The notes under the pieces are model-generated. The model had not been told where the DNA came from. It ran no database searches and saw only the letters and a program-made list of their open reading frames with translations. Shown here in pieces: positions 6,471 to 18,367 of a DNA stretch of 20,000 nt. The DNA is from an uncultured virus (IMG/VR IMGVR_UViG_3300032322_002078) (Duplodnaviria; Heunggongvirae; Uroviricota; Caudoviricetes): the IMG/VR virus record IMGVR_UViG_3300032322_002078; one strand, given 5' to 3'. Numbering within the stretch: the first letter of the stretch is position 1; each line of letters begins with the position of its first letter. Made by a program: the position numbers and the translations under genes.

Positions 6471-8633
6471 TTAAAATGGGGGGTCATCGGACAGTCCGAA
6501 GTCATCCACAAAGTTTCTGCTGTTGAATCCGTTGTTGTAGCGATCAGGTTCTTCGGCAACCGGTTTATTACCGACGGGCTTTCCGGTCTTCCAGAACTCA
6601 AAGATATCGAAGTCGTAGTAAGGTTGAGACGCATCGGCTTTAATCATGAATCTACCCCGCGACGGCTTGTAGATCATCTTGATGGGTTCTTCTTCCGGAG
6701 TGGGCCTGCCTCCGGTTTCCATGACCTTGATTTTGTCGACATGGATATCGGTGTACATCCAGTAGTCGGCGTTCTTGGTGTTGCGGTGAACCGTGATGAA
6801 ATCATCGGCGCGACTAGCGAATTTATTACCGCCCTCGATTTCATACATCTTCGGTGGCTTGTCTGGATCTCTGCCGACCCTGCGGGCGCCGTCCGTACCG
6901 GTGTGGGCATTGAGGTATATCGACACGCCGGTCCTTCTGATGAAGACCCTCATTTCAGTGGTGGCGGCGTAATCGTAGTCGTGTTTATTACCGCCTATCA
7001 TGCGGAGCTTCTTAGCTAGTTCGTCGTCTACCACAAGCGAGTTGTAGGGGTCAATCATGACGGCGTTGTAATGGCTTTCGGACAGCAGCTCTTCGGTGAT
7101 GTTGAGGATATCCCTGAAGCTGTAGACGTGCTCATTGGTGATGAATGTGAAGTGGTTCCGGATAAAGGCCTCGGCGCTTTGGAACTCGGCGTCACTGAAA
7201 GCCGACATCTGCTTGCCTGCATGGGTCTCCATGATCTTGCGGATGACGAATTCATAGTCGTTCTCGCCGGTATAGATCACCCACCGCCAGCCGTGAGCCA
7301 TGGCGCTGACCGCAGCCATGAACCACATCCAGGTCGACTTGCCGACATTAGCCAGGCCGTGTATGATGTTGAACTGGGCGGGTTTGAATCGCATGAAGTC
7401 ATCGATGTGGCGATGCCCCACACTAAGGCCTTCGGGAAGACTACCGCTACGCACCATGTTGAGGTAGGGTACGGCATTGGTGAAGTCACCGATAAATGAA
7501 CTTATATCGGAATTCGTGTTGTCGGGATCATCCATCTTGCTGTCGTCGGGGACCCGAACGGATTTGGCGGGACCGGGATCCTGCTGTTGGGCCGCCCCTA
7601 GCTTACCGTAACGGGTCTGAGCTGATTGTTTGGCGGATCCGTAGCCCAGCTCTTGCAGAGCTTGTATGGCGGCATGGGTATCGCCGCCGTGCTCCAACAT
7701 GGTGTAGATACCGAAAGGGCTGTAGGAAGGCGTCCTGCCGTTGTGCTCGGTTTCGAAAACCGTACTGGAACTAAACACCACAAGGCGATTGGTGTCGAGG
7801 TGGTAGTATGCGCTGTGCTCTCTGCTGTTATAAGGTTTTCCAGGCCTGAGTAGCTTGACTGTATTGGGGTTTGTGTTGCCTTTTGCGGTCCAGCCGTAGC
7901 TCTCCAGAAGTGTGATGCCATCGGTTCTGTTGTTGTAGTCATCCCATGGCGTGATGTCATTAGAGGCGATTTGAGAGCGTTTTGATGACTGGGTGGTACT
8001 AGACACCGGATCTTCGGTAAAGGTCTCGGAGAACGAACGCAAGGTGGCAATACAGGCATTATACTCGGCGGATGTCAACACCCCGATGTTGTCGAAATTG
8101 TTTTTGAGGATGCTGTATCCCGGTGACGGCGCCACCAGAAAATAACCTCCCTCGCTACGGGTTTCTATCAGGACGCGGGTTGCGGTCTTGATTTTGGGGT
8201 TGGATTTTTGGAGCTCACGGAGTTCGTCGGCACTGCAGTCCCGCATGGCGAGTTTTCGGTTTCCCGGTAGTTTTATGTCGGGTTCGACCTTGACGATGAA
8301 ATGGTAGCCTCCCGATACGGTTTTCTGAATGACGGACTTCTTCAGGACGCCTGGGCAGGTTTCGGCGAGTTTGTTCTTGACTCTTGTGGCCAGATCTGAG
8401 GTGAGATCGTATTTGGTGTCGATGTCGAAGCAGATCAGATTGCCGCTGACCTCTCCGGCGATGATGGCGATACCCCATGCGGAGGCCGTCAGGGAGTCGA
8501 TCTCGGCGCCGGGTATGTTGTGGGTATATCCATTGCGTTTGAATGCAACCAAGGGCTGCTTTTGCTGGTTTACGGGGATTACTGAGTACCCCAGCGATCT
8601 TAATTTTTTACTCTGTTCTGAATTCGCGGTCAT
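6471..8633 (-). CDS. Bifunctional primase-polymerase (Prim-Pol/AEP) fused to SF4 (DnaB/Twinkle-like) replicative helicase
   Basis: N-terminal AEP motifs FDID, TVSGGYH and IETRSEGGYFLVAPS. C-terminal Walker A GLANVGKS, Walker B MIDPYN, LNAH and KIK motifs. Acidic DDPPF tail. Confidence 0.9.
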   Translation of the reverse strand: MTANSEQSKKLRSLGYSVIPVNQQKQPLVAFKRNGYTHNIPGAEIDSLTASAWGIAIIAGEVSGNLICFDIDTKYDLTSDLATRVKNKLAETCPGVLKKSVIQKTVSGGYHFIVKVEPDIKLPGNRKLAMRDCSADELRELQKSNPKIKTATRVLIETRSEGGYFLVAPSPGYSILKNNFDNIGVLTSAEYNACIATLRSFSETFTEDPVSSTTQSSKRSQIASNDITPWDDYNNRTDGITLLESYGWTAKGNTNPNTVKLLRPGKPYNSREHSAYYHLDTNRLVVFSSSTVFETEHNGRTPSYSPFGIYTMLEHGGDTHAAIQALQELGYGSAKQSAQTRYGKLGAAQQQDPGPAKSVRVPDDSKMDDPDNTNSDISSFIGDFTNAVPYLNMVRSGSLPEGLSVGHRHIDDFMRFKPAQFNIIHGLANVGKSTWMWFMAAVSAMAHGWRWVIYTGENDYEFVIRKIMETHAGKQMSAFSDAEFQSAEAFIRNHFTFITNEHVYSFRDILNITEELLSESHYNAVMIDPYNSLVVDDELAKKLRMIGGNKHDYDYAATTEMRVFIRRTGVSIYLNAHTGTDGARRVGRDPDKPPKMYEIEGGNKFASRADDFITVHRNTKNADYWMYTDIHVDKIKVMETGGRPTPEEEPIKMIYKPSRGRFMIKADASQPYYDFDIFEFWKTGKPVGNKPVAEEPDRYNNGFNSRNFVDDFGLSDDPPF

Positions 8634-10087
8634 ATCTGTCCTCTTAGTTTGGTTCTGACATCGGCTCTGATGTCATCGATGGGGCGGGGTTGGTTATTGT
8701 GGTCGACGATTTCTACGCCGTACTGCAGTTTGGGGTTGAGTTCGGGGTCGCCTTTGAAGTAGATCTGCAGGACGTAGTTCTCGGCGTCTTGTTTTGTGCG
8801 GAAGCCCTGTTTGGCAGTTGGTTTGGGTTGGTCGGGTTTTTTGTAGATGCCCTGGCGGTCGTTGCGAACGAATGTCCCGATGCGCTTGCCGACGTCGAAG
8901 GCTTCGGCTTTGGATATCCTCGGCTTTCCGCTTGGCAGTGGTTCCATCCAGTGCGCGACGAAGTCCTCTACCAGGGTGTCGGTGTAGCGGTCCCGGAATC
9001 TGTTGAGCTCGGTACGGAGGTCGAGCTCGTTCCAATCCCGAAACGATTTTTTGCGCGGTTTGGGGTCGGCGCCGCCCTCTGGGTGTGTGTTGATTTCTTC
9101 CTGGCTTTTTGTTGGGTTTTGGGTTTTTGCAGAAAATGCGGTTTTCGCAGGTTCTCCTTTCTTTTCCCCTCTGCACTCCCCTTTGTTTACCTCTCCTAGA
9201 TATATATAAAATTTTTTTTTGAATGTAATATTGTTTTTTTTAATATTATTTTCTGAATTGTTTACTTTACTAAATTCTTTTAATAAATAATCTTTATATA
9301 TTAATCCTAAATAATTAATACTAATAACGCGCACACGTGCGAGAGCACCATTTTTTTTGAGTCTGCCGGCCGTCGTGTATTGCAGAATTCCGTTTTTTGC
9401 CGGTGTTACAATGCTGATTATGTGGCTTTTATGTTTTTCTACTTTTTCGACAAAAACTGATTCGGTTAGGTTGTTAGGTTTTTGAGTTTGTAGTGTTTCC
9501 GGGCTTTCTTGAATTTTGCTTACTGGCCGAGTTAGGTTATTAGGTTTTTTTTCACTGTTGTCGTTGCTTCTTTCTGCATCGGAAACCAAATAACCTAACT
9601 CGGCGACTTTTGGTACTGTTTGGCCATGGCCGTTTTCGACAAAAACTGATTCGGTTAGGTTGTTAGGTTTTTGAGTTTGTAGTGTTTCCGGGCTTTCTTG
9701 AATTTTGCTTACTGGCCGAGTTAGGTTATTAGGTTTTTGTTGATCGGAAGTCAGATTGAATTCAGAAGTATTGAAATATTCCTGCTCGGCTGATTTTCGC
9801 TCGGTTAGGTTGTTAGGTTTTTCTTGGCTTGACTGCGTAAGATTTTTGACGACGGGTCTGCCCCCTTTTCTGCCATTAAGTTTTGATGTCAGAATGCGTC
9901 TGTCGGATTTCTGTATTGCGGATTTCATTACCTCGACAATATCTTTTAAGTGCGAGGGGATCTCGATGTGGTTCTGCCGGAATGCGTATTCACACAGAGC
10001 ATCATAGAACACCAGTCTGTCGGCGTCGTCGAAAGATCGAATGATTGTGTAGTCCTGGCTTGATATCGCCGGAGTCTGTTTTGCCAT
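8630..10087 (-). CDS. Phage replication initiator-like protein (~485 aa; DUF6291-like N-terminus) with internal origin repeats
   Basis: ATG 10087 (MAKQTP) is preferred over 10198. YDALCEYAF...NGRKGGRP N-terminus, five KPNNLT repeats, an N/K/I-rich segment followed by KGECRGE, and ATGA coupling to the primase-helicase, like the lambda O-P arrangement. Confidence 0.75.
   Translation of the reverse strand: MAKQTPAISSQDYTIIRSFDDADRLVFYDALCEYAFRQNHIEIPSHLKDIVEVMKSAIQKSDRRILTSKLNGRKGGRPVVKNLTQSSQEKPNNLTERKSAEQEYFNTSEFNLTSDQQKPNNLTRPVSKIQESPETLQTQKPNNLTESVFVENGHGQTVPKVAELGYLVSDAERSNDNSEKKPNNLTRPVSKIQESPETLQTQKPNNLTESVFVEKVEKHKSHIISIVTPAKNGILQYTTAGRLKKNGALARVRVISINYLGLIYKDYLLKEFSKVNNSENNIKKNNITFKKKFYIYLGEVNKGECRGEKKGEPAKTAFSAKTQNPTKSQEEINTHPEGGADPKPRKKSFRDWNELDLRTELNRFRDRYTDTLVEDFVAHWMEPLPSGKPRISKAEAFDVGKRIGTFVRNDRQGIYKKPDQPKPTAKQGFRTKQDAENYVLQIYFKGDPELNPKLQYGVEIVDHNNQPRPIDDIRADVRTKLRGQI
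9197..9326. other. AT-rich tract; putative DNA-unwinding element of the replication origin
   Basis: ~130 bp of almost pure A/T inside a moderately GC-rich gene, next to the iteron array. Confidence 0.65.
9444..9738. repeat. 106-bp perfect direct repeat (9444-9549 and 9633-9738)
   Basis: Base-by-base identity. The offset of 189 nt keeps the reading frame. Confidence 0.95.
9465..9822. repeat. Iteron array GTTAGGTTRTTAGGTTTTT: five direct copies and one inverted copy
   Basis: Direct copies at 9465, 9531, 9654, 9720 and 9804 (19 bp each). Inverted 15/16 match at 9584-9599. Confidence 0.85.
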
Positions 10088-10212
10088 CCCGAGATTATTA
10101 AGCCCCAGACCCCTGTGTTTGGAATGAGCACAGCCGAGCTCGGTACACAGGAGAATGGGGCAGTTTTTATGTCTTTCTATGGGGCCCTGCAATTCCACCT
10201 ACAGGGTTGATG

Positions 10213-10220
10213 CAAAGCTA
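10213..10220 (-). promoter_or_regulatory. Leftward Bacteroidota-type promoter (-7 TAGCTTTG) for the replication operon
   Basis: Matches TAnnTTTG. A CTTG -33-like box lies 21 nt upstream (10242-10245). Confidence 0.65.
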
Positions 10221-10223
10221 TGG

Positions 10224-10250
10224 AAAGACTTTATATTTGTGCAAGTCTTT
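10224..10250. promoter_or_regulatory. Inverted repeat AAAGACTT-N11-AAGTCTTT; putative operator
   Basis: Perfect 8-bp arms overlapping the leftward promoter. The spacer contains a plus-strand TATATTTG (10232-10239). Confidence 0.45.
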
Positions 10251-10665
10251 TTTAATATTTTTATGATTATTATCGTCTCAGCCTACGTATTTCTGCTGTT
10301 TATGTTCATGTTTAAGCCGACATCCATGTACCATAAAGGTCGTTTTGACAGACCCCCCTGGGGGCCTTACTTTTTTTTCCATGTGGTATCGGTAGCCCTG
10401 GCATACCTGATTGATCGTATTTGCGGGAGCTAAGGGGTCTTATACCCATTCTGAGCGGGCTCGCGCGCGAGAAAAAAATACCCCCCTGCTAGGCCGTTTT
10501 CCTAGCAAATACAGGCAATACAGCCCTGATTTAATCGCAAGCCAACCCACTAAAATAAAAAAATAGAAACCTGCTAGTTATTCGACGCGAATCAATCCAA
10601 AACATCAATAAAATAAAGTTTTGCAGCCCGTAACGCGTCGAACAACGCGTTACCTGATAATTAAT

Positions 10666-10673
10666 TATATTTG
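10666..10673 (+). promoter_or_regulatory. Rightward -7 element (TATATTTG)
   Basis: TAnnTTTG 25 nt upstream of ATG 10699. Preceded by the inverted repeat TAACGCGT-N6-ACGCGTTA (10631-10652). Confidence 0.55.
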
Positions 10674-10698
10674 CAATAAACCTTTGAAAGCCCTGATT

Positions 10699-11295
10699 AT
10701 GCTAGGAAAGCAAGAAGCTATGGAATTATGGAAAAAATATTACTTGCACACTGCAAACTCACTAAAGTGCCTGGGAAACAACGACCGTAACTACTTGGCA
10801 TTCAGGCGTTTGAAGCTGAATAATCACGTAAAATACTCACCCTCAAGAACTTACCTAAAACCTAGCTCTCACTTACGAGTCCGAGCCGCTGTTAAGTACA
10901 AATATATCGACTCAATGCCCTTAGTATCAGAGGTTTACAGTAACGCAAATCATTACGCGGTCAAGCTAGTAAATAACTTTGAATATCTATGTGCGTGGCA
11001 CGGCATAGCCGTCGACGCCGCATGTAAAAATATGCGCAAACAAGGCATAAACATAAGCGCTAGGGCGCTAAGTGACTACAAGCGAATCAGCACGATTTTC
11101 AACCCCGTTTATCAATTTGCCTTGGCAATTTATTTTGGTGAACCTTATGCAAGAATGGTGTCTCAGGACTACAGTTCACAAAAACTAAAACCTTACAGGT
11201 CCATACCACCCCAAACCCTATATAAAGACCTGATTAACAGTCCTTACCACGTCCGTGAGCGTTACCGACTCAAGGAATTCCTACCCAAAGCCTAA
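10699..11295 (+). CDS. Basic protein (~198 aa), possible Xre/HTH-like regulator
   Basis: ATG 10699 lies downstream of the promoter element. The segment GINISARALSDYKR...ALAIYFG resembles an HTH fold. Very K/R/Y-rich. Confidence 0.6.
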   Translation: MLGKQEAMELWKKYYLHTANSLKCLGNNDRNYLAFRRLKLNNHVKYSPSRTYLKPSSHLRVRAAVKYKYIDSMPLVSEVYSNANHYAVKLVNNFEYLCAWHGIAVDAACKNMRKQGINISARALSDYKRISTIFNPVYQFALAIYFGEPYARMVSQDYSSQKLKPYRSIPPQTLYKDLINSPYHVRERYRLKEFLPKA

Positions 11296-11462
11296 CCAAA
11301 AACATAACAAGCACATTATCAGCATCTTAAAGAATGCCTTTCATTTATACTTTTAAGACAATTTAGGTATAATTACAGGTACTTGTGCCCAAAACAGTGC
11401 ACCCCAAACAAAAAATAATCAGCCTGATAATCAGCACGTTAACACCCAAACTAAAAAAATAA

Positions 11463-11493
11463 TTTGGAGGTTTCAACATTCTAACTACCTTTG
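11463..11493 (+). promoter_or_regulatory. Consensus Bacteroidota primary-sigma promoter, likely the main early promoter
   Basis: TTTG (11463-66), 19-nt spacer, TACCTTTG (11486-93), with an A-tract upstream. Confidence 0.85.
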
Positions 11494-11504
11494 TTGCCGT
11501 TAAC

Positions 11505-11512
11505 GTTCTTTA
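11505..11512 (+). promoter_or_regulatory. boxA-like antitermination element (GTTCTTTA)
   Basis: One mismatch to the boxA core GCTCTTTA, immediately after the predicted transcription start. Confidence 0.5.
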
Positions 11513-12103
11513 TACCACGGGTTTTGAGTGCTTAATATATATACCATGCGTGACGCCTGCTATAGCACAACACAAACAGTCCCAAAATTAGTTTTCAAAC
11601 CAACGTCGTGAGACGTCGATAAACTAGGCAGGTCTAACTGAATTCGGAACCTGAATAAAATTAACTGAATTACTACGGGCGCACTTTAATAGCATGTTTT
11701 GCGCCGACTAAAAAAAATAAAACTGCACGTCGTTATTGCGTTTCCGCATCGACTGAATAAATAAGCGTTTATTCAGGTAAGCCGATAAAAATAACACAGG
11801 TTAGTCACCTAGGCTGCATGAATATCAACAAACCGAATCGACAAAATACATAAGGTTGTTGCAGGGCAGCGCTACACTACAGGCAAGGCAAGCCACACAT
11901 CGTAGTTAGTAAACTAGGCAACCGCGACGCAAAATCGTTAGGTTGAACGAAGGCACAAAACCACTAGCGAATTCATTTTCGCCGCGACGTGGGGACGGCA
12001 TAAGTGACCAAATGTAAAAGTGAGGGCAGTGCTCACAATAATAAACGTGGCGGTTATTTCAGGCGGGTGACACGCAACATGAACTAACCTTAAAAAAATA
12101 TAT

Positions 12104-12183
12104 AGGCAGCGCTTAGATAGTGCAGCCCCGTTTTACGGGGGACGTGGCTAGGCTAATAGAATCGAATTCAGCGCTGCCTACCA
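12104..12183 (+). ncRNA. tRNA-like element with 7-bp acceptor stem, discriminator A and CCA
   Basis: AGGCAGC/GCTGCCT-A-CCA, an ATCGAAT T-loop-like heptamer and a CCCC-GTTTTAC-GGGG hairpin. The D-arm is non-canonical. Confidence 0.4.
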
Positions 12184-12209
12184 AACAATTAATCAAATAA
12201 AATCAGCCT

Positions 12210-13415
12210 ATGAAAAAAACCAATATCTACGTAGTGAACGGCAAAACATTCACTAACGGACGCGAAGCCTGCCAATACGCCTGGGACGGCGGTTATTTAC
12301 CGAACCGAAGCCGTCCCGAATTGACAGATAAATTCAATCCTTTAATGATGCTGCAAACCGCGGCGCAAAACGGGTGCGAATTGTTTGTGAACGGCAAACC
12401 TTTTACCACGGGCGCCTCGGTGCCTAATCCTGAAAAACAGGAACCCGCGATTAAATCATCTAATAATAATAATAATAATCAGCCCATGAAGCCAAACCAA
12501 AACCTAGAGCAACCCGCGCAGCAATTAGCCGACGCCCTGCAAAACCTGCTAAGCAGTCAAACCCCTAAGCTAGACGAAAGTCGTGTAGTTGAATTAATCA
12601 AACAGCATAGCGTCGACGAAAGCCTGCTTATTGACCTCATTCAAGCCCATAGCGGTGTGAAGGTGGTCGAAATCAAAAAGCCCGACGTACCCAACATCAA
12701 AGTCGGTGTTCAGCACAAGAATTTCGAACGCCTAGTCCAATCAATTTCGGCGGGTGTTAATGTAATGCTAGTCGGCGAGGCGGGCAGCGGGAAATCGAGC
12801 GCCGCCGCGAATGTAGCCAAAGCGCTGAATTTAGATTTCGGCTTTATTAGTTGTGGACTCACAACAACTAAGTACGAATTCAGCGGGTTTATCGACGCTT
12901 CGGGCAGGTTCGCAAGCACTGAATTCTTTCGGGTGTTCACCAATGGCGGGGTGTTCCTCCTAGACGAATTCGACGCCGCTAGTCCCAACGTCGGCATAGC
13001 GCTTAACGAAGCCCTAGCCAATAAGCGAGCTAGTTTCGCCGACGGCTGCTATGATGCCCACCCCGATTTCATCTGTATCGCAGCCGCCAACACTTACGGC
13101 AACGGCGCCACGATGGATTTCGTCGGTAGGCAGAAATTAGACGCCACCACACTAGACAGGTTCGTGGTGTTGAATTGGGATATCGACGAGGATTTCGAGA
13201 ACGCCATCTCGCCCAATAAAGACTGGACTCGGAAAGTACAAAAGTATCGCGCAACCGTTAAGCGCCTAGCTATCCGACACAGCGTTACCACTAGGGCAAG
13301 TATCAACGGCGCCAAGTTAATCGCGGCGGGCATACCTGAGAATGAGGTCGTGGATATGGTTATCTTCAAAGGTCTGAGCACAGACGTCCGCAAACAAATA
13401 CAGGCAGCGCTTTAA
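12210..13415 (+). CDS. MoxR/CbbQ/CobS-like AAA+ ATPase
   Basis: Walker A GEAGSGKS, Walker B FLLDE, sensor 1 AAANTYGNGA, arginine finger LDATTLDRF, sensor 2 TTRA. Confidence 0.9.
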   Translation: MKKTNIYVVNGKTFTNGREACQYAWDGGYLPNRSRPELTDKFNPLMMLQTAAQNGCELFVNGKPFTTGASVPNPEKQEPAIKSSNNNNNNQPMKPNQNLEQPAQQLADALQNLLSSQTPKLDESRVVELIKQHSVDESLLIDLIQAHSGVKVVEIKKPDVPNIKVGVQHKNFERLVQSISAGVNVMLVGEAGSGKSSAAANVAKALNLDFGFISCGLTTTKYEFSGFIDASGRFASTEFFRVFTNGGVFLLDEFDAASPNVGIALNEALANKRASFADGCYDAHPDFICIAAANTYGNGATMDFVGRQKLDATTLDRFVVLNWDIDEDFENAISPNKDWTRKVQKYRATVKRLAIRHSVTTRASINGAKLIAAGIPENEVVDMVIFKGLSTDVRKQIQAAL

Positions 13416-13456: not shown

Positions 13457-14341
13457 ATGAGTTTATTCAATCAGCTAGTGCCGAAATACTATCCCGAGCA
13501 CAGCGTATTCGAATCGGTTTCCTCACCTAGTCTAAGTGACTACGTGAAATTCCTCACCACAACCAAGCCCGATAACGGCAGACCTGTCCTACCCGATAGT
13601 TACGAACTCTGCATGTCAGAAGCCGAAGAGCGCAGGCAGTGGGCGGGTGGTAGTATGGCAGACGCCATGCGAATAATAACTCAGGGTTACGAGCCCGAGG
13701 CGCTTAAGGAAATCGAATTCCAAACACTAGAGCAGCAGGGCGCACTAGAGATACATCGCGATATGATGGGATGTGTTCCCGACGTCGGTGCCTATCTAGC
13801 GGGTGCACCCGATTGCATGGTTGACTTCAGTCTTACAGCGCCGAAGAAATTCGCTTCGCTTTACATTTCGTATTCCTATAGCTGGCAAATAGATGCCGAT
13901 GTGGTTGAATACTACAGCGCCAAGATTTACAACCTCTACAACACCTTACTAGCGCAGAACTACGAGGTCGAAATCATTGCGTATTCAGTAATCACACTAG
14001 GCAGCGCGAAAAACGACAGAATGATTGTGCACAGCTTTCCGCTTGCGCAATTCGGATACAAGATATCGCCTCAATTACTAGCGGCGGTGTTTCACCCCAC
14101 GTTCTTACGCAGAATCAGGGTGCCGTATATGTTTATGAACCACAGCAGCGATTCCGCTGGAGTCACTAGAAGCATACCTGCTGGACTCCAGCTAGAGCTT
14201 AATCAGAACGGCGCCGTCGTGTTGAAATCCCTGAGTGAAATCTCTGGACTTATCGACCAAAAGTTATCGAAGGAATCCAAAAAGAAAGCCATCGACGACA
14301 CCATCAGCGCAGCGCTGAAACAACTAGCTGATAATAATTAA
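13457..14341 (+). CDS. Probable VWA-like partner of the AAA+ ATPase (294 aa)
   Basis: Adjacent to a MoxR-type ATPase. Contains a DVGAYLAGAPDCM motif, a degenerate MIDAS-like ISYSYS after a beta strand, and HPTFLRR. Confidence 0.65.
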   Translation: MSLFNQLVPKYYPEHSVFESVSSPSLSDYVKFLTTTKPDNGRPVLPDSYELCMSEAEERRQWAGGSMADAMRIITQGYEPEALKEIEFQTLEQQGALEIHRDMMGCVPDVGAYLAGAPDCMVDFSLTAPKKFASLYISYSYSWQIDADVVEYYSAKIYNLYNTLLAQNYEVEIIAYSVITLGSAKNDRMIVHSFPLAQFGYKISPQLLAAVFHPTFLRRIRVPYMFMNHSSDSAGVTRSIPAGLQLELNQNGAVVLKSLSEISGLIDQKLSKESKKKAIDDTISAALKQLADNN

Positions 14342-17911: not shown

Positions 17912-17920
17912 CCCTTCAAC

Positions 17921-17964
17921 CCTCGCTGCGACATTGCTTAGAAGCGCTCAGAACGCTTGCGAGG
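17921..17964 (+). repeat. Intergenic structured repeat A, copy 2
   Basis: CCTCGC-TGCGACATTGCTTAG-AAGCG-CTCAGAA-CGCTT-GCGAGG. Confidence 0.9.
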
Positions 17965-17989
17965 TGCTAAACCTTAAACATTTACTAGT

Positions 17990-18367
17990 ATGAAAACACT
18001 TGCACAACAACTGGCCTCAAGAATCCAGGCTTACAAGAACTGCGTAAAAGCAGGTAACGAACTCTACAGAGACATACACAAAAATAAAATAGAAGAGCTC
18101 TGTCAGCTGCTACCTAATGGCAGCGGTATTGACTCAGGTGTAGAGCTGATAATACGGGACTGCGACTCCGAAAAGCTAGTCTTTAGTTTTGGCTTCCACC
18201 ACATGGACGAGCACGGAGGTTACGATGGATGGACGCAGCACACCTTAATAGTGACGCCATCCTTCTCAGGGATAAACCTAAAGATAACAGGCAAGAATAG
18301 GAACGGGATAAAAGAATACCTGCATGACTTGTTCTATCACGTCTTTACTCAAAAACTAACGGATTAA
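17990..18367 (+). CDS. Hypothetical phage protein (125 aa)
   Basis: ORF containing LPNGSGIDSG and FHHMDEHGGYDGWT. Confidence 0.85.
   Translation: MKTLAQQLASRIQAYKNCVKAGNELYRDIHKNKIEELCQLLPNGSGIDSGVELIIRDCDSEKLVFSFGFHHMDEHGGYDGWTQHTLIVTPSFSGINLKITGKNRNGIKEYLHDLFYHVFTQKLTD

Follow-up and report, generated by a model that had tools for sequence, protein, structure and literature searches.

What does a phage keep in several hundred nucleotides (nt) of DNA that hold no open reading frame (ORF) and lie between a promoter and the first gene of an operon? Here, this question is put to positions 11,463 to 12,209 of a 20,000-nt stretch from an uncultured virus of the Caudoviricetes (IMG/VR record IMGVR_UViG_3300032322_002078), the whole of which we call the window. 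An earlier note on this DNA, made from its letters alone, had proposed a single large structured RNA that acts as an antitermination leader or works with the pair of AAA+ and VWA proteins encoded downstream. We find that the interval is non-coding, and our preferred reading is that of a boxA-protected non-coding leader of ~690 nt, which would be transcribed with the rightward early operon from a regulated promoter of Bacteroidota type and cut at a tRNA-mimic junction; we consider this evenly poised between right and wrong. The leader is conserved at either end and exchangeable in between.

Between the stop codon of an ORF at 10621-11295 and the start of the AAA+ gene there is a gap of 914 nt (11296-12209) with no ORF of at least 40 amino acids (aa), so that the earlier count of some 700 nt behind the promoter without an ORF of 60 aa or more holds even at this lower threshold. 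It is by far the longest ORF-free gap of the window, the remaining ones on both strands being 78 nt or less, except for a divergent region at 10199-10620. The longest ORF inside it has 38 aa and is on the minus strand, and reading through any single stop codon (TAA, TAG or TGA) opens no frame of more than 126 codons. Parts of the region are matched, at 90-99% likeness, by contigs from three studies of lake water, and in these strains four single-base insertions or deletions (indels) fall within 11858-12092, as against none in two flanking coding pieces with 15 and 19 substitutions, which confirms the stretch as non-coding. Moreover, the gaps of related loci resemble one another both as DNA and in each of the six tblastx frames, a signature of non-coding conservation. 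A BLASTN search of the gap against 50,697 phage records gave no match. That the gap is chance or decayed sequence, or holds short peptides of unannotated small genes, would agree with its several ORFs of 20-38 aa and with its ordinary overall folding energy. We find this hardly credible, however, as sequence comparison brought out no small ORF common to the gap and its relatives, the strain indels shift every frame, and an invariant 10-mer, promoter, junction and tail recur in order in six lineages. Conserved small peptides, which the earlier note had named as one outcome that would undo its case, are a very improbable explanation.

The relatives were gathered by profile scans. With the AAA+ profile, eight metagenome loci were found that form four lineages, namely L004 (equal to L002 and IMG/VR L010), L005 (with L006), L007, and L008 (with L009), while the L003 record begins downstream of the element. 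A scan with a profile of the upstream ORF added L156, a 55-kb IMG/VR contig and the sixth lineage when the window is included. The order of conserved ORF, gap, and operon is found in all six (window, L004, L005, L007, L008, and L156), with an upstream ORF of 193-224 aa, and in L004, L005, L007, and L008 it takes the form of a 193-aa ORF, a gap of ~1 kb, small ORFs, and the AAA+ gene. The layout common to the lineages runs from the ORF through palindromes, promoter, CGTTCTTTAT, non-coding stretch, 3' junction, and AC(U/C)AAAC to a start codon, and its parts lie in the window as follows.

10621-11295, plus strand: upstream ORF of unknown function, 224 aa from TTG, with a likely true start at ATG 10699
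11415-11437, no strand given: operator-like palindrome CTGATAATCAG with flanking AATCAGC half-sites, ~30 nt upstream of the promoter
11463-11493, plus strand: Bacteroidota-type promoter with -33 TTTG, a 19-nt spacer, and -7 TACCTTTG
11504-11513, plus strand: boxA-like motif CGTTCTTTAT, invariant in six of six lineages at the equivalent place
11515-11523, plus strand: conserved block CCACGGGTT, common to L005 and L007, where it stands just before the boxA-like motif and not after it
12103-12180, plus strand: 3' three-way junction, closed by an 11-base-pair (bp) stem (12103-12113 with 12170-12180)
12180-12186, plus strand: tail ACCAAAC (A-CUAAAC in relatives), with the AAA+ start 23 nt further on

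From promoter to tail, the length varies between ~365 nt (L156) and 690 nt (window), with a variable middle of about 245-580 nt, and the tail is followed by the next start codon after 10-30 nt across the lineages. Overall homology between the window and its relatives is barely visible (BLASTN; nhmmer E 0.34 and 0.83). There are collinear exact blocks, CGTTCTTTATA, GAATCGACAA, AGGTAAGCCGAT, AGTGCAGCC, and GGGACGTGGCT, and the chain of blocks of at least 9 nt was reached by 1 in 1000 dinucleotide shuffles for L007, 0 in 1000 for L008, 19 in 1000 for L005, and 28 in 1000 for L004. Blocks of 9 and 11 nt in the window junction recur in L007 and L008. Scans of IMG/VR with a 27-mer of the window and with a 20-mer upstream block brought no new members.

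At the 5' end, the palindrome CTGAT(A/T)ATCAG (11424-11434 in the window) is also found upstream of the promoter in L004, L005, and L156. Of the nhmmer matches that the relatives' profile has in the window, it is the best, albeit weak (E 0.34). The promoter, TTTG-N19-TACCTTTG, sits where the earlier note had put it; equivalents of the form TTTG-N18-TATCTTTG occur in L005, L007, and L008, and this -33/-7 form is what we take to be the Bacteroidota consensus. Twelve nt past the -7 box follows the core GTTCTTTA (11505-11512), which equals the 8-nt boxA core GYTCTTTA and is invariant in six of six lineages, bearing out the boxA-like site. The published boxA consensus, derived for gamma-proteobacteria, is GYTCTTTAANA (PMC5725501), and the NusB-NusE crystal structure has 8 nt recognised (PMC3177189). 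Among the 153 loci compared, CGTTCTTTAT was found at 10 loci of this family and at two chance sites in high-GC coding DNA, L156 being added later. Two further GYTCTTTA sites on the plus strand of the window lie inside minus-strand genes. As for a rut-like excess of C over G, the skew is merely -0.10 in the first quarter of the window RNA. A conserved helix between boxA and GUAAG-type segments was considered and dropped, the pairing being strong only in L007. The role of antitermination leader proposed earlier fits the invariant core, with the loading of Nus factors as its presumed step.

At the 3' end, the domain of the relatives mimics the acceptor, T-arm, and elbow of a tRNA, and is neither a tRNA nor a transfer-messenger RNA (tmRNA). 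It is made of a 6-7-bp closing stem, an unpaired A(C/G)CAAGGCG segment, a long arm with an internal loop of (A/C/U)GCAG against G(A/G)C(A/G/U)UGG and a terminal hairpin, and a T-arm (GGUUCGAGUCC, GGGGG-UUCGAGU-CCCCC) directly 5' of the 3' strand of the closing stem. The RNAalifold consensus of the relatives is cloverleaf-like with 24 pairs, its long arm ending in a 3-5-nt loop and its D stem missing. In four relatives, 97.9% of the cells in the alignment are paired and 9 of the 24 pairs have changed on both sides. When five are taken, 97.5% are paired as against 36-47% with slid partners, 9 pairs have changed on both sides, and double-change cells number 20 compared with 0-2 in the slid controls. 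In fact, L156, which was left out of the building of our model R1, is matched by it at 94.9 bits (E 2.5e-28). Several G-U pairs in the junction fix its strand as plus. The marks of a tRNA-like structure, which are a 5-bp T stem, a 7-nt UUCGANU loop, GG in the D-loop analogue, and ~12 bp stacked, are present in all five relatives.

True tRNA or tmRNA genes were not recognised here. ARAGORN reported neither in the window and returned 0 genes for L003, L004, L005, L007, and L008, and the Rfam tRNA model RF00005 had no match at E <= 0.01 on L010, the 71.5-kb contig with the L004 junction. With respect to tmRNA, the arm is a closed hairpin, and the third acceptor pair is U-A (L007, L008) or C-G (L004, L005, L156) and not G-U. 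Nonetheless, where the earlier note saw no tmRNA hallmark, the relatives carry a clear T-arm at the position of the window junction.

The window junction, which occupies the place of the tRNA-like structure, has the arm in common with the relatives. This arm (12118-12150) has the internal loop UGCAG/GACGUGG, both sides of which are identical to L007 and L008, and the hairpin CCCCG-UUUUA-CGGGG, and its inner hairpin covaries across lineages (CCCCG/CGGGG in the window; CCGAU/AUCGG, CCGAA/UUCGG, UCUAGC/GCUAGA, and UUCAC/GUGAA in relatives). The segment 12095-12190 folds with a z-score of -3.43 and no shuffle out of 200 as good, and positions 12093-12160 are free of variants in a strain whose 204 nt just before them differ by 11 substitutions and 3 indels. 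Model R1 matches the window at 12118-12150 only (18.3 bits, E 0.029 in a 600-kb search, model positions 33-66). Here, the marks of tRNA likeness are missing: there is an 11-bp stem with a 4-bp mini-hairpin, GAAU-CGA-AUUC, which abuts the 3' strand of the junction in place of the T-arm, while T-loop and AAGGCG are both absent. The loss has thus struck the T-loop together with its presumed D-loop partner, and the window junction is a degenerate homologue of the tRNA-like junction of the relatives.

Searching IMG/VR with a pattern for the tRNA-like structure gave 63 loci, 62 of them ordinary tRNA contexts and the other the contig of L004, and a pattern for the window-type arm gave no new members. 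The idea of a phage attachment site (attP) or tRNA fragment was set aside, the junction being a complete covarying unit and no tyrosine integrase having been found on the L010 contig (71.5 kb, 49% complete). A segment CUGCACGUC (11724-11732) is complementary to parts of the loop of the window junction, with no counterpart in L007 and L008. As a separate observation, in two unrelated phage contigs (L040 3196-3267 and L039 1856-1920) a CobS-like AAA+ gene is preceded on its own strand, at a distance of 60-110 nt, by a hairpin and then a tRNA-like element with a T-arm and no D-arm; to ARAGORN, the L040 element is a tRNA of unknown type whose anticodon has 4 nt. T-loop-like GGTTCRA was not enriched upstream of AAA+ genes, with 8 other loci among ~75 phage loci against ~6 by chance.

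More conspicuously, the relatives have small three-way junctions, similar to tRNA minihelices, at later gene boundaries of the plus-strand operon. Each has a closing stem of 5-6 bp, a 4-bp hairpin, and a 7-8-bp hairpin (5-7-nt loop) that abuts the 3' strand, with 12-13 bp stacked. In every case, A-CUAAAC-UUUUAAAC and then a start codon come next.

L006, 5405-5461, plus strand: small junction
L006, 7021-7076, plus strand: small junction
L008, 5382-5437, plus strand: small junction
L004, 5445-5495, plus strand: small junction

These small junctions covary, with 90.8% of cells paired compared with 37-52% for slid partners and 9 of 17 pairs changed on both sides. A look-alike in the window (17920-17979, before a gene at 17990) is weak, with z = -0.97. 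Since such structures recur, the 3' junction of the leader can be read as one of several tRNA-mimic punctuation marks.

Put together as a mechanism, the boxA-like motif, a few bases past the likely transcription start, would allow the host NusB/NusE (Nus) complex to load onto RNA polymerase, and the polymerase so equipped would cross the untranslated leader and the operon without Rho-dependent or intrinsic termination. The 3' junction, for which the relatives offer a T-loop, a D-loop analogue, and a 12-bp acceptor-plus-T stack, would mimic the stack of acceptor and T-arm and serve as punctuation, with RNase P cutting on its 5' side and RNase Z or E on its 3' side so as to free the leader from the mRNA. 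The freed RNA of 0.4-0.7 kb might then carry a lineage-specific cargo. In this chain, Nus loading, cleavage, and the stability of the product are what we infer. More tentatively, and in our view doubtful as it stands, the element could belong to an undescribed phage RNA system that combines the biogenesis signals of an rRNA operon (boxA, long-range helix, and tRNA-mimic release of a stable RNA) with a cassette swapped like an immunity or anti-defence specificity module and with minihelix punctuation, which would be the counterpart in a bacterial virus of the tRNA punctuation model.

The exchange of the middle is seen in a mosaic. By its AAA+ protein, L005 is close to L007 and L008 (73-75% identity), yet its RNA middle matches that of L004, at 77% over 418 nt, and the flanking proteins of L004 and L005 are 36-48% identical. 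When the minimum free energy (MFE) folds of these two middles were tested on each other, compensatory double changes made up 16 of 65 changed pairs (slid control, 10 of 146) and 11 of 67 (slid control, 6 of 140), though the fraction of changed pairs kept (0.40) is hardly above that of the control (~0.35). Within the middle, a core of ~150 nt (L004 2420-2560 and L005 2828-2975) is ~95% identical, and this likeness suggests a recent cassette exchange. Searches for the core found it nowhere else, neither in IMG/VR (only the contig of L004) nor, with a 24-mer, in GTDB genomes.

These data also bear on a simpler explanation, a purely cis-acting 5' leader that is never released, whose boxA and hairpins would tune read-through, stability, or translation, whose junctions would stabilise or attenuate, and whose middle would be a spacer. 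The stretch from the promoter to the AAA+ start is free of terminator-like sites (plus-strand sites in 10000-13000 are only at 10055 and 12824), the middle is hypervariable and has nothing remarkable in its folding energy, small junctions of a similar kind separate ordinary downstream genes, and the window junction has lost its tRNA hallmarks, all of which would be natural for such a leader. A mere spacer, however, leaves unexplained why 365-690 nt are kept in every lineage, why L004 and L005 agree over 418 nt so much better than in their flanking proteins, and why their local hairpins have compensatory changes in excess (16/65 vs 10/146 slid); moreover, a T-loop, the GG of the D-loop, and a stack of 7+5 bp exceed the needs of a stabilising hairpin. 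On balance, we hold a leader of this kind to be rather unlikely.

Several points weigh against a leader protected by boxA and released at a tRNA mimic. The boxA match departs from the consensus at positions 9 and 11, and this consensus is gamma-proteobacterial and may not be that of the host, which is deduced solely from the promoter type and is probably a member of the Bacteroidota. In the fold of L007, the motif can pair instead with a downstream segment in an 11-bp helix. The window junction is without a T-loop and without the D-loop analogue (the AAGGCG segment), its R1 match is partial and weak, and it may be no RNase P substrate. The transcript, its ends, and any cleavage are likewise inferred, and the lineages number only six, with two pairs of them close. 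As regards the middle, this central part is unalignable between the four lineage groups, that of L156 matching no other, and it folds no better than shuffles in six of six lineages (plus-strand z from +0.10 to -1.29), so that no structured 'cargo' can be claimed for it. In addition, the MFE cross-test of L007 and L008 gave no excess of compensatory changes.

The folding of the window RNA bears chiefly on a reading that extends the larger claim of the earlier note, namely one large ornate, self-standing RNA of the GOLLD/ROOL kind with a middle as folded as its ends, which might work with the AAA+/DUF7192 pair. The helices listed in that note are each present, as are the inner helices of the ~290-nt domain and the two copies of the 11-mer TAAACTAGGCA (at 11620 and 11910), and further pairings came from folding.

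11528-11532 with 11564-11568, plus strand: helix GTGCT/AGCAC
11589-11627, plus strand: hairpin TAGTTT/AAACTA (strands 11589-11594 and 11621-11626) with inner ACGTC-GTGA-GACGT
11678-11683 with 11700-11705, plus strand: helix GGCGCA/TGCGCC
11737-11740 with 11745-11748, plus strand: helix TGCG/CGCA
11798-11805 with 12083-12090, plus strand: closing helix AGGTTAGT/ACTAACCT
11806-11810 with 12065-12069, plus strand: helix CACCT/GGGTG
11547-11561 with 12062-12076, plus strand: long-range helix of 14/15 bp, predicted by MFE, that would close the central part just before the 3' junction
11753-11786, plus strand: predicted hairpin CUGAAUAAAU/GUUUAUUCAG and then the 12-mer block AGGTAAGCCGAT, common to L008
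11826-11861, plus strand: predicted helix CAACAAACC/GGUUGUUG around the block GAATCGACAA (11835-11844), common to L007
11967-11982, plus strand: predicted hairpin GCGAA-TTCATT-TTCGC, followed by the first GACGTGG copy (11986-11992)

Taken as a set, these helices do not exceed chance, although every item described is there. The whole interval folds with z = -1.09 on the plus strand (3 of 20 shuffles as good) and -0.14 on the minus strand, and 120-nt sliding windows average z = -0.56 inside it against -0.62 in the flanks. The sole outlier in this comparison with shuffles, which the earlier note had called for, is 12095-12190 (z = -3.43, as given above), a segment absent from its list. The block AGGUAAGCCGAU follows a hairpin with a lineage-specific stem, CUGAAUAAAU/GUUUAUUCAG in the window, CUCAAG/CUUGAG in L008, and CCGAAC/GUUCGG in L007.

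The strain variants give a mixed picture. Positions 11536-11686, which include the hairpin at 11589-11627, show 0 differences over 151 nt in a strain that is ~6% divergent further downstream. The hairpin at 11967-11982 gains an A after 11969 and a T after 11975 in two lake-water runs, whereby its stem grows from 5 to 6 bp and its 6-nt loop is kept, and in the helix 11826-11834/11854-11861, worked out by hand, 8 pairs are still possible despite 4 substitutions and 1 insertion. In the long-range helix, 12065 G>A and 12073 C>T keep pairing and 12066 G>A breaks one pair, the latter giving a C-A mismatch in either proposed partner helix, while 12083-12084 AC>CA breaks two pairs of AGGTTAGT/ACTAACCT. 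Natural variants break pairs in both helices said to close the 290-nt domain (12083-12084 and 12066). Over all substitutions at MFE-paired sites, 6 of 9 keep pairing, with about half expected by chance for transitions, and the variants were therefore dropped as a test of covariation.

For an ornate RNA speak its size, phage origin, and covalently linked tRNA-like unit, which resemble GOLLD/ROOL, as well as a long-range helix that closes the middle in five full folds (in L004, L005, L007, and L008, the 5' region is likewise paired by MFE with a segment just 5' of the junction), the hairpins with compensatory changes in type-A middles (L004/L005), and the two helices preserved by strain indels in the window. 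Yet the middles are unalignable between groups with z near 0, no Rfam model matches, the domain-closing helices are broken by variants, and L156 has the RNA on a contig (CheckV 77% complete, a fragment) in which no AAA+ homologue was found. In L156, the boxA motif and a full tRNA-like junction are followed by unrelated small ORFs, so the element goes with the operon head and the upstream ORF and not with the ATPase, and a dedicated partnership with the AAA+/VWA pair is unlikely. With a central part that is lineage-specific and folds as shuffles do in six of six lineages, one large ornate RNA is distinctly improbable. Of the earlier interpretation, the non-coding status, the promoter and boxA head, the homologues, and the absence of an Rfam family have stood, and the ornate RNA and the AAA+/VWA partnership have not; homologues with covarying helices do exist, mainly in the 3' tRNA-like junction and not in the middle.

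A quite different explanation is a DNA-level element, either a replication origin (transcription-activated or R-loop-primed) or a module boundary that promotes recombination, with the folds as by-products. It would account for a middle that behaves as an exchangeable cassette between conserved ends, for the palindromes and AT-rich runs upstream of the promoter, and for the divergent zone near the primase-helicase genes with its change of AT skew sign. It could also accommodate the observation that in L005 (2631-2982), L007 (820-1202), and L008 (2840-3115) the middle, read on its minus strand, has a fold somewhat better than that of its shuffles, with z from -2.0 to -2.6. The skew switch and repeats, however, sit at 10200-10620, outside the element, no iteron array is found in 11500-12100, the conserved motifs, every one of them on the plus strand, are asymmetric, and the strand-specific G-U pairs and compensatory changes of the junction amount to selection on RNA. 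We accordingly give this explanation little credence. In its own right, 10199-10620 is the second long ORF-poor stretch of the window, placed between divergent operons, with 21-nt direct repeats (10472 and 10557), inverted repeats, and the change in sign of the AT skew, and is a candidate origin or regulatory region.

How, then, does a leader with a boxA head and a tRNA-mimic end compare with known systems? Against 4227 Rfam models, the window had 0 matches at gathering scores, 11200-12300 at E <= 10 had three chance-level matches (InvR at 20.5 bits vs a gathering score of 60, tsr25, and IsrM), and the relatives at E <= 1 had only mir-297, mir-135, and two weak tmRNA matches, so that the check asked for in the earlier note returned no family for the window or its relatives. 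Like rRNA-operon leaders and lambda nut sites, the element has a GYTCTTTA core, from a few to some tens of bases past a strong promoter, and a long untranslated transcript, here ending in a tRNA-like unit. In rRNA-operon leaders boxB precedes boxA, and in L005 and L007 a hairpin likewise precedes the motif. The element differs from lambda nut and rRNA-operon boxA in its positions 9 and 11, in having no N-type protein and no proven boxB, and in a Nus binding that is presumed. HK022 put is a two-stem, RNA polymerase-binding structure, unlike the conserved 5' part of the element, which is a linear motif.

The CI RNA of P4 and the C4 RNA of P1/P7 are tRNA-like, lie in the leader of their own operon, and are matured by RNase P. 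The element resembles them as a tRNA-like RNA in an operon leader, and differs in that they are antisense regulators of ~70-80 nt with known target repeats, in phages of Proteobacteria. Rfam presumably holds the C4 family, and no Rfam match and no conserved complementary target were found; P4-like target repeats were dropped as a candidate since none is conserved. With the tRNA-like domain of tmRNA, the only Rfam family with weak matches to the junction (E 0.008 and 0.0096; 16 bits vs a gathering score of 47), it shares an acceptor stem, a stemless D-loop analogue, a T-arm, and a single long irregular helix where a tRNA has its anticodon arm, but its arm is a closed hairpin of ~45 nt, and it has no tag reading frame, no pseudoknots, and no tmRNA call by ARAGORN.

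GOLLD was first seen in lake metagenomes. GOLLD and ROOL are, like the element, phage-borne non-coding RNAs of 0.5-0.8 kb, whereas the element has no model match, a middle that is not conserved and not detectably well folded, and nothing that points to multimer cages. According to a bioRxiv paper, GOLLD has one conserved and one variable region, and GOLLD and ROOL lie near tRNA islands, sometimes with linked tRNAs. A further likeness is to tRNA punctuation, as in mitochondria and in MALAT1-mascRNA, where a tRNA mimic within a long transcript marks the cut site; the phage mimics stand at gene boundaries. Those systems are eukaryotic or organellar, whereas in the phage cleavage is presumed and the copies in the window are degenerate. 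The accessible portions of the literature on boxA in Bacteroidetes, tRNA-like phage non-coding RNAs, and GOLLD/ROOL describe no such element.

The surroundings are those of a phage. On the minus strand, the window encodes a large terminase subunit (1002-2912), a primase-polymerase/helicase (6471-8633), and further genes, and from ~10600 a plus-strand operon follows, in which the AAA+ ATPase comes before the DUF7192 protein.

12210-13415, plus strand: MoxR/CbbQ/CobS-type AAA+ ATPase, which opens the operon and has ~70 aa of clade-specific N-terminal domain
13457-14341, plus strand: DUF7192 protein, second gene of the operon, the 'VWA' partner of the earlier note, with a putative VWA fold
11085, 11417, 11429, 12201, 12477, and 13414, plus strand: AATCAGC(A/C/G) sites
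9412, 9788, and 15241, minus strand: AATCAGC(A/C/G) sites

The upstream ORF (10621-11295) aligns with L004 1146-1727 by BLASTP (E 1e-14, 26% identity), is by alignment the syntenic counterpart of the 193-aa ORF found ahead of the element in every relative, and has no Pfam or PHROG match. For the DUF7192 protein, no PDB relative was found by sequence. Residues 1-75 of the AAA+ protein (12210-12430) have invariant NGRE, C-Q, LP, RP, and DKFNP-MM, with a low-complexity linker thereafter. This N-terminal extension is restricted to a small clade; it matches no family, and a structure search of the Atlas gave no usable look-alike. Among cultured phages no relative with this domain was found, tblastn against the 50,697 phage records having matched 427, none of which covers 80% of the query, and an AAA+ profile search of genome contigs gave no match. 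Closer relatives of the AAA+ protein were seen as proteins only, P0002 with 75% identity and P0003 and P0004 with 57%. The AATCAGC(A/C/G) sites are enriched in the window, 9 being present vs 2.5 expected, a number that 0 of 200 shuffles reach. Two copies lie 2 nt 5' of an ATG in the same context, AATCAGCCnATGAA, one at the AAA+ start (12210) and the other at an in-frame internal ATG (12486), which could yield an isoform without the N-terminal domain.

For mitochondria, the processing of polycistronic transcripts by tRNA mimicry belongs to textbook knowledge, and in the portions of the literature that were searched it is not described as an organising principle of a phage operon. While boxA, tRNA mimicry, and phage leader RNAs are each known, we know of no case in which they are combined and the tRNA-mimic punctuation is repeated. 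Should the reading of a boxA-protected leader released at a tRNA mimic be true, a group of uncultured freshwater phages would rely on the tRNA-processing and Nus machinery of the host both for producing and for trimming a long non-coding RNA with which an early operon begins, and would mark later gene boundaries with tRNA mimics as well. Conserved ends around a variable middle would then offer a means of searching for RNA cargo, such as decoys or specificity determinants, that is under diversifying selection. Two short signatures could serve to search metagenomes, CGTTCTTTAT on the one hand and UGCAG-hairpin-GACGUGGCU followed by a T-arm and CUAAAC on the other. And were the element only a leader, it would still be a clear boxA-headed phage leader outside the Proteobacteria.

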